Numbered from the stretch's first letter, positions 5,037 through 14,908 are shown. The stretch is DNA of 32,000 nt from Ruminococcus albus 7 = DSM 20455 (GCF_000179635.2 NC_014833.1:1680001-1712000), one strand, 5' to 3'. A program made the numbers and translations. The notes: generated from the sequence alone by a model not told the origin.

Positions 5037-5504
5037 ATGGGATTTGAAAGTTATTCATGCAAAGTTGTGATGGACAATTCAGATAATGATGGTGTACTTA
5101 ATGAATTTAACAATACTGTATCAAATATTTTGGATTTAAAAGTAAAAGAATTTAATAGTTACTATATTTATAAAAATATAGAAATTTATGTAGAAAAAGA
5201 AAACTTTGTTTCTTTTATTTTGAAGGGTTGTTTTATTTGTTATAATCAAGGATTAGATCAAATGATCGATATAATTAATTGTATAAAAGAAGTTGGTAAT
5301 GTACGCATATATTGCTTAGATCAATTAATTGATGATATTTCTTTTAAAACAAATATAAAGATACTATACAAAGAAAAGCAGGATTTTTTTGATAAAAAAT
5401 ATTCTAATATTATAGTAGAAACAACTTGTACTGGTTTTTATAGAATAAAGCCCTATATTGACTTTATGTTAAAAATAAAAAGTAAATTAGGGTTCTATAA
5501 ATGA
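5037..5504 (+). CDS. Hypothetical AT-rich protein (155 aa), possibly an orphan immunity protein at the end of the toxin locus
   Basis: Intact ORF in very AT-rich DNA, with size and composition similar to the other immunity candidates. Only a weak RBS. GC content rises sharply immediately after its stop (TGA 5502-5504). Confidence 0.55.
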   Translation: MGFESYSCKVVMDNSDNDGVLNEFNNTVSNILDLKVKEFNSYYIYKNIEIYVEKENFVSFILKGCFICYNQGLDQMIDIINCIKEVGNVRIYCLDQLIDDISFKTNIKILYKEKQDFFDKKYSNIIVETTCTGFYRIKPYIDFMLKIKSKLGFYK

Positions 5505-5924
5505 GCAATTTCGTCAAACTTCACGAATTTCGCGCCGAAAAGCGTACCAAAATACGCATCAGCGAAGTGGGATTCCAAAGGGGGGCACCCACACGGTGGT
5601 GCGCCCCTTATGGTGGGGTACGGGGCAAAGCCCCATTAAAATCAGCTGCGAGACTACAAACTTACCGGTCTGCACACTATTTCGAGCAGCTGCTACTTCC
5701 TTTGGGCGATATGAGCAACAGCGAACGAGCATACCCCCGAACCGTCACCGCAAAGCCGTCAAAATTGAGATTTAGTTCTGTGAAACTGATTACTAAAAAG
5801 TACGAATTTCCAATAACCCTTAGCCTACTGGCGCACCTGATTTCCGTTTCACACAAGTCATAATCAGAATTGTGGAGCATTCCACAACAGGCATAAACCC
5901 TATTGAAACGAATAACCGCAAGCT

Positions 5925-5967
5925 CTCGGAAACGCTCTGTAAGCGTTTCTGAGGGCTTTTTCTTTTC
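5925..5967 (+). terminator. Strong plus-strand intrinsic terminator inside the ORF-free left arm of the element
   Basis: 12-bp stem CTCGGAAACGCT / AGCGTTTCTGAG (one G-U pair), loop CTGTA, then GGCTTTTTCTTTTC. Confidence 0.6.
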
Positions 5968-6138
5968 AGCGGTTAGTTTTCCGCTCCGCAGGCTCGGACG
6001 GTGATGTGGAGCTTTTCCGTTCGTCTGACGGTCAAGCTGAGGTCTGCTCGGTGATGCCGTGACGGAGTTCATACGTAAGCGTATAACCCCCCGCATCATA
6101 AAAGCAAACAGCCGGGCAGATAACACCCGGCCGTAACA

Positions 6139-6677
6139 TCATATTCTGGCTTTGATTTCTCCATTTCTCTTTGCGTCCATGTATATTTCTTTGAAATCAG
6201 CTTTGCTGTTCGGACCGAATATGATCGGCATAACAGATACCAGGCCATCGGAAATGATCGCATTTTTAAATGGCAGAAGCGCTGCATCAAGCAAAGTTGG
6301 CATCGGTGCATTTCTCAGCATTTCCTCCCAACTGCTGACAATGCCGTTTACAAGAAAAACAGAATTGTCATCGATCGATATAAATACCGATCCCTTTTTC
6401 CAATGTCGCTCAATGATAAATCTGCCGGTGATGCACCCTTTCCAGCTTTTAAGTATCTCCATGTGTTCTTCGGGCAGATCCGATCGCTCAAGATAATCAT
6501 CAATGATCCATGTCCGTTCCCATAAAAGTGGGCAACCTCCGCAGCGTCCTGTGGGTCGATCATTCCTTGCCCGAAATAATCTTCCTCAGGAAGTATATGA
6601 TATTCTCTGTTCACATAGTCAAGCAGTGGAAAAAACAGTTCATAAAACAGCTTTGCATCTTCATTACTAAGTTTCAT
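6139..6677 (-). pseudogene. IS66 copy A passenger gene of unknown function (~180 aa if repaired), apparent frameshift
   Basis: Two overlapping ORFs (6348-6677 and 6139-6462) read as a single protein if one base is restored near the T-run at ~6515-6525. Its ATG overlaps the tnpC stop (GGAGGGAAGAAAATGAAA). A hairpin (GCCGGG...CCCGGC, ~6110-6132) lies between the ORF and the IS end. Confidence 0.5.
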
Positions 6678-8177
6678 TTTCTTCCCTCCATGGTAATAAT
6701 ATCGTCCCCGCAGGCTGTGAAAACAGCTCGGTCAGGTATTTCTCAGCATCAACACCGTTCGCCTGTGCAGTTGAAATGATCGAATACAGCGTTGCACTTG
6801 ATCTGGCTCCGTTTGCTGTATTTGAAAACAGCCAATTTTTTCGGCCTAACGCAAACGGTCTTATTGCGTTTTCGGCTCTGTTGTTGTCGATAGGCACGTC
6901 TCCGTTTTCAAGAAACGTGTAAAGATATTTCCGTTCATTCAACGCATATCTTACTGCATCTGTCAGCTTGCCCTTACCACTGACCTGAACATTTTCAAGC
7001 CACGCAAAAAACTCGTCAAGCAAAGGCTTTACCTTCACAAGGCGCTGTTTATATCTGTATTCTGTGGAGCTGTCGGCAAGCAGATTTTCTTCGTGATATA
7101 TCTTGTTGAAATATTCTACTGCCTTTGCCGCAACAGAAGTGCTGTGCAGCTTTTGGTCGTTCGGAAGAGCCTGAATAAAACCACGCCTTGCATGAGTCAT
7201 ACAGCCGCATCGCTTAGCACCCTCGACTGCATTGTAGGCATCGTATCCGTCACAGATAAGATAGCCGATAAATCCTTTCAGGAAATTCGAGGCGTGCTCA
7301 CCCTTTCGTGTCGGCTGATAATCGAAAATGATGATGCTCCTGTCATTCATTTTGCCGTTGCAGTAGACCCACATTCTTGATGTCGTGGTAGGCTTTCGGC
7401 CTTCCTCGTGAAGCACCTGAACGGTCGTTTCATCGGCATGGATCATCTGCCCTGCGATAAGCATCTCATGCATTTTCTCCACAATCGGCAAACACCATTT
7501 TTCGGCAGCAGTGCCTACCCAATTAGACATAGTCGCTTTGAGCAGAGGTATGTTTTTGGAATTAAAGTCCTTTTCCTGACGGTGCAGAGGTACTGACTTT
7601 GCATATTTTCGTAGATGATATGAGCCAGAAGTTCGGGAGAGCAATAGCTTCCCGGGATCATAGCGTGAGGATATGGCGCACGGATGATATGACAAGGTTC
7701 GTCCCTTTCTTCGGGCTTTTCTCCGCACTCGGGACACTTGTACTTATGTACTATATGCCTGCGGATATGATATTTTGGCGGCGTAAATATAAGTTCATCG
7801 TAAGCCTTTTCGGGAGTCAGTTCTTCCATTTCGGCGCCGCATATTTCGCATACCGGGTTGTCAATTTTGTGATGTTCTTCTTTTACAGGCAGATTGTTCA
7901 TCCATTCATCGTGAGTGCGTTTTTTCTTGCGCTTGTGTTCGGGAACAGTAATTGTTTCGGCAGATTTAGCTGCGGATTTTTCTTCATTGTTTCCGAACAT
8001 GGAAAGCTGAACACCGAACTCCTTTTCCATAACAACAGATGTCTGCTCTGTTTTTCTTCCGAATATCTGCTTTCTGAACCACGCTAACTGCTGATTGGCA
8101 AGTGCTAGTTCTTCCTTGAGAACAGCGTTTTCATTACGGAGCGATACAATTTCCGATGTCATATTTGGTTCGGACAT
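6667..8177 (-). pseudogene. tnpC: IS66 transposase TnpC, copy A, single frameshift
   Basis: The N-terminal frame (MSEPNMTSEIVSLRNENAVLKEEL..., zinc-ribbon CEICG...CPECG) and the C-terminal frame (...HADETTVQVL...DGYDAYN...NRAENAIRPFALGRKNWLF, DDE region) overlap. The shift maps to an A4 run (7606-7609, minus strand) that is A5 in copy B. RBS GGAGGGG lies before ATG 8177. Confidence 0.85.
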
Positions 8178-13099: not shown

Positions 13100-13118
13100 A
13101 ATTTTAGCTTGGTGCGTA

Positions 13119-13147
13119 TTGACTTTTTCGGCAATGCGCGCTAAACT
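13119..13147 (+). promoter_or_regulatory. Possible promoter for the large serine recombinase gene
   Basis: TTGACT (13119-13124), 17-nt spacer, TAAACT (13142-13147). RBS GTGAGGT precedes ATG 13190. Confidence 0.35.
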
Positions 13148-13189
13148 ATTATCATAGCTTGCTGTATCCTGTCGGAAAGTGAGGTTAAA

Positions 13190-14818
13190 ATGACAGACAA
13201 GATAACAGCTTTATACTGCCGTCTGAGCCAAGATGATATGCTCGACGGCGAGAGCAACAGCATTACCAACCAGAAAGCAATTTTGCAGAAATTCGCTGAG
13301 GACAACGGCTTTCCAAACCCGACTTTCTATGTCGATGACGGAGTTTCGGGGACAACGTGGGAGCGTGACGGCTTCAAAGCGATGATGGCTGACATTGAGG
13401 ACGGCAAGGTCGCTACGGTCATTACTAAGGATTTGAGCCGATTAGGTCGTGACTACCTGAAAACAGGTGAGCTGATCGAAATGGTGTTCCCTGATTATGA
13501 TGTGCGTTACATTGCGGTCAACGATAATGTCGATACGGCAAAGTCGGAGAATGAGCTGCTTGCTTTCAAGAACATTTTTAATGACTGGTACGCCCGTGAT
13601 TGCAGTAAGAAAATTCGTGCTGTGTTCAGGGCAAAAGGACAGTCGGGCAAGCACCTGTGTCCGCCCGTGTACGGCTACAAGAAGTCGGATACCGACAAGA
13701 ATTTGTGGGTGATTGACGAGCCTGCCGCTGAGGTGGTACGCAAGATTTTCAAGCTCTGCATTGACGGCTACGGTCCGGTGCAGATCGCAAGGATTTTGAC
13801 GGAGCAAGGCATACCAACACCGACCGCCTACGCATTATCGCAAGGTCGTGACAACGGCAGACACAACGCTAAAACATACCGCTGGGGAGCAAACACGATT
13901 GCCCATATCCTCGAAAGGCTTGAATACTGCGGTCACACGGTCAATTTCCGTACAAAGATGAAGTCCTACAAGGTTCACAAAATCGTCTACAATCCGCAGA
14001 ACGAGTGGCAGATATTTGAGAATACGCAAGAGCCTATCATCACGCAGCAGACCTTTGACTTGGTGCAGGAACTTCGCAAGCACAAGCGCAGACCGCAGAA
14101 AATGCAGACGGTCAATCCGTTCGCAGGAATGGTGTACTGTGCTGACTGCGGAGAAAAGATGTACCTGAGCCGCCGCAAGAATGAGCGTCCTGAACAGGAA
14201 CACATGAGATGCTCCACATACGCAAAGGAACAGGATAAATGCACCGTCCACTATATCCGCACTTGCGTATTGAATGAGATCGTCCTCGGTGAACTTAACA
14301 AGCTCCTGATGATGGTGCGTGAGAATGAGGACGAGTTTATTCAGACGGCTATGAGCAATTCCGTTCAGCGTAAATCCTCGGAGCTTACTAAGGCGAAAAA
14401 GACCTTAAAGCAGGCAGAAAAGAGAATTACCGAACTGGACAAGCTCTTTACAAGGCTTTATGAAGATAATGTTCTCGGCAGGCTGTCGGATGAGCGTTTC
14501 ACGATGATGTCGGCTGGATATGAGGACGAACAGGCAAAGCTGAAAGCTACCGTTGCGGAGCTTACAACCCTGATTGACGGTGCAGAGAAGAAGTCCTCCG
14601 ATGTGACAGCTTTCCTCAAAGTGGTGCATAAGTATGAGCATATCGAAACGCTCACGCCTGAGATCATGCACGAACTGGTTGACAAGATCGTAGTCCACGA
14701 ACCCGACAAGTCCAGCGGTAAGCGTGTGCAGGATATTGAGATACACTTCCGCTTTGATGTTGCGGTATCGACGATTTCCGTTGAAACAGGTAAATTGCAA
14801 ATACTTCGTAATTGCTGA
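13190..14818 (+). CDS. Large serine recombinase (TnpX/TndX-like; resolvase catalytic domain, recombinase domain, zinc ribbon, C-terminal coiled-coil/DUF4368-like region)
   Basis: [10 protein letters not shown]...SITNQK...[10 protein letters not shown] catalytic motifs. Cys cluster CADCGEKMY...MRCSTY...CTVH. C-terminal stretch [19 protein letters not shown]. Confidence 0.9.
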
Positions 14819-14908
14819 AAAAAGGTCGCATAATGCCTATTTTATGCGACCTGAATTAAGGGAGAAAAAACTTCTATATCACCACTGTGCTTTGCCGCCG
14901 GGGGTGAA

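Follow-up and report, generated by a model that had tools for sequence, protein, structure and literature searches.

What do the recombination and mobilization genes in a 32,000-nt stretch of the Ruminococcus albus 7 (DSM 20455) genome belong to, and where does that element begin and end? This whole stretch, hereafter the window (positions are counted from its first letter), carries genes for a small resolvase, a MobA/VirD2-type relaxase, a NikA/MobC accessory protein, and a large serine recombinase (LSR), a gene set proposed in a first-pass annotation and supported throughout by Pfam. That annotation took the genes for a compact, cargo-less, Tn4451-like element of ~6.3 kb, occupying positions 5505–14818 and excised at GA dinucleotides. 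We reach a different reading, to which we give a probability of roughly 0.9: the genes are the conserved right-hand core of one ~24.2-kb integrative and mobilizable element (IME), which carries an RHS toxin locus and splits a regulator gene. The element belongs to a kind already known, the Maff2-type serine-recombinase IMEs, and its unusual part is the cargo.

Junctions and target of the R. albus 7 element

The junctions were mapped in the R. albus 7 genome from 80 related loci (the family set, obtained by scanning reference genomes with the window LSR as query), two unoccupied sites, and a contig of R. albus 7 that reaches upstream of the window (L101). One unoccupied site lies on a 66.5-kb metagenome contig (L094), found in a metagenome scan anchored on the start of the 'AraC' open reading frame (ORF), and the other on a scaffold (L099). 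Two segments of the window, 24022 down to 19484 and 16336 down to 14892, have collinear counterparts in L094 at 97–99%, and the homology stops exactly at the TT at 14892. L099 is likewise collinear at 97–99% and has the same breakpoint. Beyond this TT, the 'AraC' reading frame of L094 continues upstream for more than 520 codons. The intact target is a 736-amino acid protein with periplasmic-binding-protein domains and an AraC helix-turn-helix, conserved in Ruminococcus; the gene order in L099 is Crp, GH10, regulator, HAD, GH43, and pyrG.

The left junction lies outside the window. L101, which overlaps window positions 1–789 at 100%, has in order GH10, an N-terminal fragment of the regulator (L101 10001–11725), the left repeat (...gcagtatatccTT/ACGACAGTAGGCATAAAGAAGTTTTCAGAC), a 79-amino acid ORF, and a 3501-amino acid RHS gene. 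The left junction, attL (...gcagtatatccTT/ACGACAGTAGGCATAAAG...), is 9.27 kb upstream of the window; attR reads ...CACCACTGTGCT-TT-gccgccggg, and attB (...gcagtatatccTTgccgccgg...) falls within the intact regulator gene. The crossover dinucleotide is TT in all three, and joining the left flank of attL, TT, and the right flank of attR rebuilds the unoccupied site of L099 at 296 of 300 positions. The leftmost base of the element lies 9270 bp upstream of window position 1 and its last base is 14891, each end being bordered by TT. It measures ~24,164 bp (~21,151 bp without the IS66 insertion sequence it contains and the associated target-site duplication, or TSD). Its terminal repeats match at 20 of 30 positions, and its left arm is 86–88% identical to those of complete family members over ~280 bp. 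The insertion lies at TT inside the chromosomal regulator gene and leaves ORFs of 574 and 176 amino acids. A full-length LSR flanked by attL and attR, with a matching unoccupied attB, is the makeup of a canonical IME, as is the possession of its own relaxase and NikA/MobC protein without mating-pore genes: no type IV secretion system, VirD4, or VirB4 genes occur between the element ends. A truncated copy that had lost its left end was first suspected, since the window lacks the left repeat, the family cargo, and the N-terminal part of the regulator; we rejected it because L101 shows the canonical left repeat beside the N-terminal fragment.

Both regulator fragments belong to the 90% cluster of the 736-amino acid protein, and they are annotated separately, ADU21967 (574 amino acids) as LacI-family and ADU21982 (176 amino acids) as AraC-family. 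The annotation of this reference rumen genome can now be corrected to make them the halves of one sensor/AraC regulator. As the two are halves of one split gene, R. albus 7 has probably lost the function of this regulator, which is sited between GH10 and GH43 xylanase-type genes. The interval 5505–5821 had been considered as the N-terminus of the regulator and was rejected; the frames do not join, and the true N-terminus lies elsewhere. The draft contigs of GCA_000621285.1 match the window at 99.97–100%.

The attL/attR/attB triad refutes the compact element, which retains practically no chance, even though most of the features behind it are real. GC content does jump at ~5504/5505, GA is present at 5503–5504 and 14817–14818, the LSR is related to those of Tn4451-like elements, and AGCAATTTCG and CGTAATTGCT match in inverted orientation at 9 of 10 positions, as good a match arising in ~2% of random window pairs. 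However, the jump is a boundary inside the cargo, and other samples with the RHS array read straight through 5504/5505 at 100% identity. The crossover is TT and not GA in 45 of 45 right ends, and CGTAATTGCT, which sits where the 3' end of the LSR gene varies by a 21-bp indel, is internal in relatives with normal ends. Family homology runs on to 14891 and the TT, through a hairpin past 14818 whose conservation among family members marks it as part of the element and not a host terminator. From the proposed left boundary, the canonical left repeat lies another 14.8 kb to the left, and the right boundary is off by ~75 bp, the TT lying 74–75 bp past it. The predicted palindromic joint CGTAATTGCT-G-AGCAATTTCG (CGTAATTGCTGAGCAATTTCG) and empty site (...CTATAAATGAAAAAAGGTCGC...) do not correspond to real junctions. 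The size of ~6.3 kb is correct as arithmetic but not as the extent of the element, the ORF at 5037–5504 is not a host ORF but lies inside the element, and the RHS locus, treated as host flank, is cargo. Comparison with loci lacking the element, a check that the first-pass annotation had itself suggested, gave sites that break at 14892 instead of 14818. Homologous elements end elsewhere and no empty site was seen at 5505–14818, the very outcome that annotation had named as refuting it. What stands of that annotation is the view of a mobilizable element, here integrated, with a serine recombinase as its driver.

The family, its Maff2 target, and its cargo slot

DNA homology of the family to the window starts at ~5822 and runs to ~14893–14903. 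The right arm (...CTATATCACTACTGTGCT) is borne by 45 loci of the family set and is followed by TT in every one; the form ...AAAAACTTCTATATCACTACTGTGCT also always has TT next. The flank beyond TT is a Maff2 gene (PF12750) in 31 of the 45 right ends, truncated at profile position 44 of 70 and located beside VirD4 and DUF3801 genes, while at least 10 of the 45 have other, unrelated flanks. The family is inserted at many independent sites. Where Maff2 is intact, the protein reads ...NDNPGAKSQGMKQLMAG..., and occupied copies end in ...NDNPGAKAQ followed by two stops. The 3' remainder of Maff2 (KSQGMKQ...) is found directly beside the left repeat ACGACAGTAGGCATAAAGAAGTTTT in eight loci; this remainder and the conserved left end, TT/ACGACAGTAGGCATAAAGAAGTTTTC, sit 2–5 kb to the left of the equivalent of position 5822. 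Intact and occupied Maff2 sequences, together with the left remainder, place the crossover at AA in the Maff2 sense (TT in the sense of the window), within a Lys codon. An unoccupied integrative and conjugative element (ICE) locus (L095), with the order DUF3801-VirD4-Maff2-TrbL-PrgI-VirB4 and an intact Maff2, provides the family attB. The two family ends are imperfect inverted repeats.

Maff2 is the insertion site for 31 of the 45, but not for the R. albus 7 copy. The regulator site shares 20 of 52 positions with the Maff2 site and appears to be a secondary integration site, Maff2 being preferred. For an IME family widespread among Ruminococcus of the rumen and gut, these data fix to the base where the ends, the TT crossover, the preferred target, and the cargo slot lie, and the att sites and LSR form a pair ready for experimental testing.

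Another candidate reading made the LSR module the end piece of a Maff2/VirD4 conjugative element, with 14903 as a recombination breakpoint. This was rejected because the 3' remainder of Maff2 lies beside the left repeat, unoccupied ICE loci have an intact Maff2, and at least 10 copies are located elsewhere. AraC, HAD, and orf120 were not found in the related loci. Two further candidate boundaries were discarded: a break in a Logan contig at 14762, explained by a T/G difference at 14761 between paralogous copies, and a stop in LSR homology at residue 535, due to the 21-bp indel at the 3' end that distinguishes 542- and 535-amino acid forms of the LSR. Other truncated forms of Maff2 (proteins P0002, P0008, and P0010), for example ...NDNPGANAYV (122 member sequences) and ...NDNPGAKIQGAYRSFF, have their breaks within the same few codons, an indication that this Maff2 hot spot serves other element families too.

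The R. albus 7 element has, in order, the left inverted repeat with the 79-amino acid ORF (~280 bp), a cargo slot, the core, and the right inverted repeat; sizes in the family range from 7 to 24 kb. The slot between the left arm and the junction at 5822 varies among complete members, which carry an ABC ATPase, two restriction-modification pairs, a MatE protein with an AraC regulator, an ECF sigma factor, or an esterase. The junction sequence itself (AGCCTACTGGCGCACC, 5822–5837) resembles the right arm joined to the Maff2 flank (CTACTGTGCTTTCGCACC), and differing cargo abuts its equivalent in eight relatives (L014, L021, L029, L037, L038, L043, L047, and L048). From its sequence, the junction may be the relic of an att site, or else the place where the neighbouring small resolvase acts.

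RHS cargo and core genes

The R. albus 7 copy has a 14.8-kb slot containing the RHS toxin gene, presumed immunity genes, orphan toxin/immunity cassettes, and a 317-bp spacer. The locus, ~15 kb, fills a slot where relatives carry resistance, restriction-modification, or transporter genes. The RHS gene starts 8683 bp upstream of the window, and its product has an N-terminal signal-like (Sec) sequence, Ig-like repeats, a YD shell, PT-HINT, and Ntox47. As in RHS/WapA-type polymorphic toxin loci, there is a giant secreted YD-repeat protein that has PT-HINT and a variable C-terminal toxin, and downstream of it lie small genes with a presumed immunity role and low-GC orphan PT-HINT/toxin modules. The YD/RHS shell, PT-HINT, C-terminal toxin, and orphan cassettes mark this as an RHS polymorphic toxin, its immunity genes being assigned by position, and the protein is consistent with an interbacterial toxin, secreted or at the surface, whose immunity is encoded downstream. 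Unlike RHS/WapA-type loci, this one is enclosed as a whole by the recombination ends of a mobilizable element; RHS cargo in serine-recombinase IMEs of Firmicutes is unreported in the literature searched and to our knowledge. GC content is 24–37% in the orphan cassettes (window 1600–5504), ~40% in the RHS gene body, and 45–50% in the element core. The PT-HINT segments repeat at 74–93% identity, as expected for toxin-swapping by recombination. An exact sequence look-up of the 154-amino acid immunity-like ORF returned no match.

Did the RHS locus arrive with the element? A composite origin supposes that the 24-kb interval was not integrated as a unit: either the RHS locus entered the slot of a small member already present in the regulator gene, or homologous recombination between two family copies brought a left arm and a core together around an RHS locus that was formerly chromosomal. 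The RHS cargo is unique among the 80 loci, composition steps sharply from 24–33% to 45–50% GC, the 317-bp spacer (5505–5821) is unrelated to anything else and has no homologue in the 80 loci, and the junction sequence at 5822 borders every cargo module alike, a pattern suggestive of a site of exchange. Two Logan contigs (L003 and L004, from SRR4055036 and SRR4055038) match the window from 3944 to ~5980 at 99–100%, cargo end and spacer included; identity then falls from 100% to ~86% through the 3' half of the resolvase gene, and homology is lost at ~9420, beyond which lie unrelated genes for an AAA_21 ATPase and a tyrosine integrase. To judge from their sequence, these contigs represent a mosaic form derived from the element, in a strain or sample that is related. 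Against a composite origin, a single left arm, core, and right arm lie between the target halves, the empty site rebuilds at 296 of 300 positions, and no RHS locus occurs within 10 kb of the unoccupied site. We consider this history unlikely. Even an RHS locus acquired later is now inside the recombination ends and would therefore move with the element.

In the core of the ~24.2-kb IME, the LSR, relaxase, and accessory genes are full-length and 95–98% identical at the protein level to copies in many genomes. LSR proteins 90–98% identical to that of R. albus 7 occur in many of the 80 loci, in contigs assigned to many different genomes. The relaxase has sub-threshold NCBIfam matches to MobP-type and SAG1250 relaxases. 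The small ORF 5' of the LSR gene was described as TnpW-like; it is there, but scores 19.4 bits against the Pfam TnpW profile (cut-off, 25 bits) and has no similarity by BLAST to genuine TnpW. No window protein matches a TnpV profile, and Rfam and tRNA scans of the window returned no hits. A second variable spot of the core, at 12156–12186, adjoins a hairpin (CGGCAATCTT/AAGTTTGCCG), and five relatives (L026, L029, L043, L044, and L047) have 0.2–1.6 kb of extra DNA there. The origin of transfer (oriT) is possibly in the region upstream of mobC, where the hairpin coincides with this spot.

Features of the window and of the element within it
Feature	Position	Strand	Basis or remark
3' end of RHS/YD-repeat toxin gene (3501 amino acids), PT-HINT and Ntox47 C-terminus; cargo	1–1822	+	Pfam; full gene in L101/L002, reconstructed
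154-amino acid ORF after toxin domain, presumed immunity gene; cargo	1827–2291	+	position; weak DUF6756 match only
Orphan toxin module, PT-HINT and Tox-ART-HYD1 ADP-ribosyltransferase; cargo	2471–3256	+	Pfam
154-amino acid ORF after orphan toxin, presumed immunity gene; cargo	3246–3710	+	position
Orphan PT-HINT fragment, weak Ntox24-like C-terminus; cargo	3798–4229	+	Pfam
155-amino acid ORF, final gene of low-GC cassette array; cargo	5037–5504	+	inside element ends
GC-rich spacer (317 bp) between cassette array and conserved core	5505–5821	.	
Core/cargo junction AGCCTACTGGCGCACC, start of homology common to all family members	5822–5837	+	
Small resolvase gene, last 14 codons, cut off by IS66	6032–6074	-	in silico removal of IS66
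IS66-family copy 1 (3005 bp), TSD GTTCATAC at 6067–6074 and 9080–9087	6075–9079	-	
Small serine recombinase (resolvase), 5' portion	9088–9656	-	Pfam PF00239
Relaxase, MobA/VirD2 nuclease domain	9656–11332	-	Pfam PF03432
Relaxosome accessory protein, NikA-like/MobC	11134–11805	-	Pfam
Small hairpin at second variable spot of core; low-confidence candidate oriT or terminator	12156–12180	.	
Conserved 135-amino acid ORF, no assigned function	12333–12740	+	
67-amino acid ORF directly 5' of LSR gene	12896–13099	+	sub-threshold TnpW similarity only
LSR (542 amino acids), Resolvase, Recombinase, Zn_ribbon_recom, and DUF4368, N-terminal YCRLSQDD motif	13190–14818	+	Pfam
Hairpin GGTCGCATAA...TTATGCGACC 3' of LSR gene	14824–14851	.	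kept within family
Right terminal inverted repeat (P arm) GAGAAAAAACTTCTATATCACCACTGTGCT	14862–14891	+	
TT crossover dinucleotide at attR	14892–14893	.	matching attL TT 9271–9272 bp upstream of position 1
Flank outside element: C-terminal fragment of disrupted 736-amino acid regulator gene	14894–15439	+	annotated as 176-amino acid AraC protein from 14909
HAD gene	15556–16152	-	
IS66-family copy 2 (3147 bp), TSD CTCCGACA	16337–19483		
Host genes (including dockerin GH43, pyrG, and glutamate synthase)	from 19527		

The 3005-bp IS66 with an 8-bp TSD (GTTCATAC) was recognized in the first-pass annotation, which missed that it interrupts the resolvase gene and that a second IS66 lies at 16337–19483. 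Removal of the first copy and one copy of its TSD in silico restores a 203-amino acid resolvase ORF. The assignment to IS66 follows from tnpA/tnpB/tnpC, terminal inverted repeats (GTAAGCG...), and the 8-bp TSD; each copy has its TnpC divided between two ORFs. The copies are 83–96% identical and differ in their 3' passenger segments (6075–6676 and 18750–19483). These two inverted copies have not recombined with each other, as the TSD of the second (CTCCGACA) is also intact. The second copy landed within a hairpin (AAAAAGCTC...GAGCTTTTT) that lies between the GH43 gene and the HAD side; this copy is absent from the unoccupied relatives L094 and L099.

Mobility and comparison with known systems

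By analogy with described elements (PMC5704250), the LSR would recombine attL and attR at TT and free a circle with the joint ...CTATATCACCACTGTGCT-TT-ACGACAGTAGGCATAAAG... (in longer form, GAGAAAAAACTTCTATATCACCACTGTGCT-TT-ACGACAGTAGGCATAAAGAAGTTTTCAGAC). Excision would restore the regulator gene, with attB as GATAAGCAGTATATCC-TT-GCCGCCGGGGGTGAAATGACGG. The relaxase and accessory protein would then nick oriT, and the circle would be transferred via the mating pore of a co-resident conjugative element. The LSR would integrate the circle preferably at the Lys codon of ...NPGAK/SQG... in Maff2, or else at secondary sites such as the regulator gene, and the RHS locus would supply its carrier with an interbacterial toxin and immunity.

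Several points weigh against our account of a mobilizable RHS carrier. The resolvase is without its last 14 codons because of the IS66, and one mismatch separates the right arm from the family consensus (CACCACTG vs CACTACTG), which makes present-day activity of the element uncertain. RHS cargo occurs in 0 of the 80 other family loci and has no close relative elsewhere, relatives of the N-terminal region of the RHS protein being distant (≤56% identity); as the cargo is unique and has no close relatives, movement of the RHS-loaded version has not been seen. The cargo end in L003 is on a diverged, truncated core, and recombination has therefore reshaped the region. Excision, circle formation, and transfer are predictions, and oriT has a low-confidence candidate at 12156–12180.

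Some of these points would equally suit a fossil, a copy with intact ends that is immobile (because IS66 cuts the resolvase gene, because the right arm is mismatched, or for want of a helper conjugative element) and matters only as a fixed insertion inactivating the regulator. In keeping with such a copy, every contig with these exact flanks is occupied, and a search of catalogued plasmids returned no close copy of the core. Yet the LSR, relaxase, and accessory genes are full-length and nearly identical to widespread copies, the resolvase lost only 14 C-terminal codons, and the best-studied relative is described, where PMC5704250 cites Lyras et al. 2004, as needing the LSR alone for excision and integration. 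Immobility seems to us somewhat unlikely. A good deal more speculative is a reading in which a complete RHS polymorphic-toxin locus, with its orphan cassette array, travels on a mobilizable element that is still active, and in which the 5822 junction and small resolvase may be a site-specific cargo-exchange system. If the former were true, an interbacterial weapon with its immunity would spread among rumen Ruminococcus strains via conjugative elements; the latter would explain why a different module lies at the same sequence in every family member.

Serine-recombinase IMEs that target Maff2 in Tn5252-type ICEs are known, among them IMESp2907 and IME_ScoC232_maff2 (PMC5704250). The IME_Rho_tet family has 21-bp terminal inverted repeats, a 3' boundary 81–90 bp past the recombinase stop, and 45% of its recreated integration sites in Maff2 ORFs (PMC12904643). 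By their published descriptions, to which this comparison refers in place of their sequences, the present family resembles IMESp2907, IME_ScoC232_maff2, and IME_Rho_tet in having a single LSR at one end (3' boundary 73–75 bp past the stop, vs 81–90 bp in IME_Rho_tet), imperfect terminal inverted repeats of ~20–30 bp, a relaxase and mobC with cargo upstream of the mobilization genes, and preferred insertion in a small Maff2 ORF beside VirD4 in addition to unrelated contexts. It differs in that the resolvase-relaxase-mobC block is opposite in strand to the LSR gene, whereas all ORFs of IME_Rho_tet are co-oriented, and in that it has an extra small resolvase. The R. albus 7 copy differs further in carrying an RHS toxin locus instead of tet(W)/tet(32) or erm cargo, and in its location in a chromosomal regulator gene.

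The resemblance to Tn4451/Tn4453 put forward in the first-pass annotation holds in part. Both are LSR-driven IMEs with 2-bp crossover sites that can use multiple sites, and both have a small ORF directly 5' of the LSR gene. The R. albus 7 LSR falls in a DUF4368 clade to which Tn4451-like elements also belong; it has the domain set of the LSR (not TnpX itself) of a Tn4451-like TnpV/Mob-Pre/TnpW element on pD610-HI2 and is 43% identical to that LSR over 522 amino acids. However, the recombination site of Tn4451 is GA (PMC5704250), and not TT as here; the relaxase is of the MobA/VirD2 type instead of MobV (Mob/Pre, TnpZ), and does not resemble Mob/Pre of the Tn4451-like element; TnpV is lacking; and the family strongly prefers one target, Maff2, and measures 7–24 kb rather than 6.3 kb. 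Because the relaxases are unrelated, the TnpW resemblance is not significant, and the crossover differs, we do not file the element as a Tn4451-family member. We found no literature joining FirmiData with R. albus.

The Tn4451-like element used in this comparison (L103, positions 203514–217076 of Klebsiella pneumoniae plasmid pD610-HI2) consists of TnpV, aac(6')-Ie-aph(2'')-Ia, Mob/Pre, TnpW, and a DUF4368 LSR. It is a module of Gram-positive type on enterobacterial IncHI2 plasmids, and matches of equal score and coverage occur in Salmonella, Enterobacter, and Citrobacter records.

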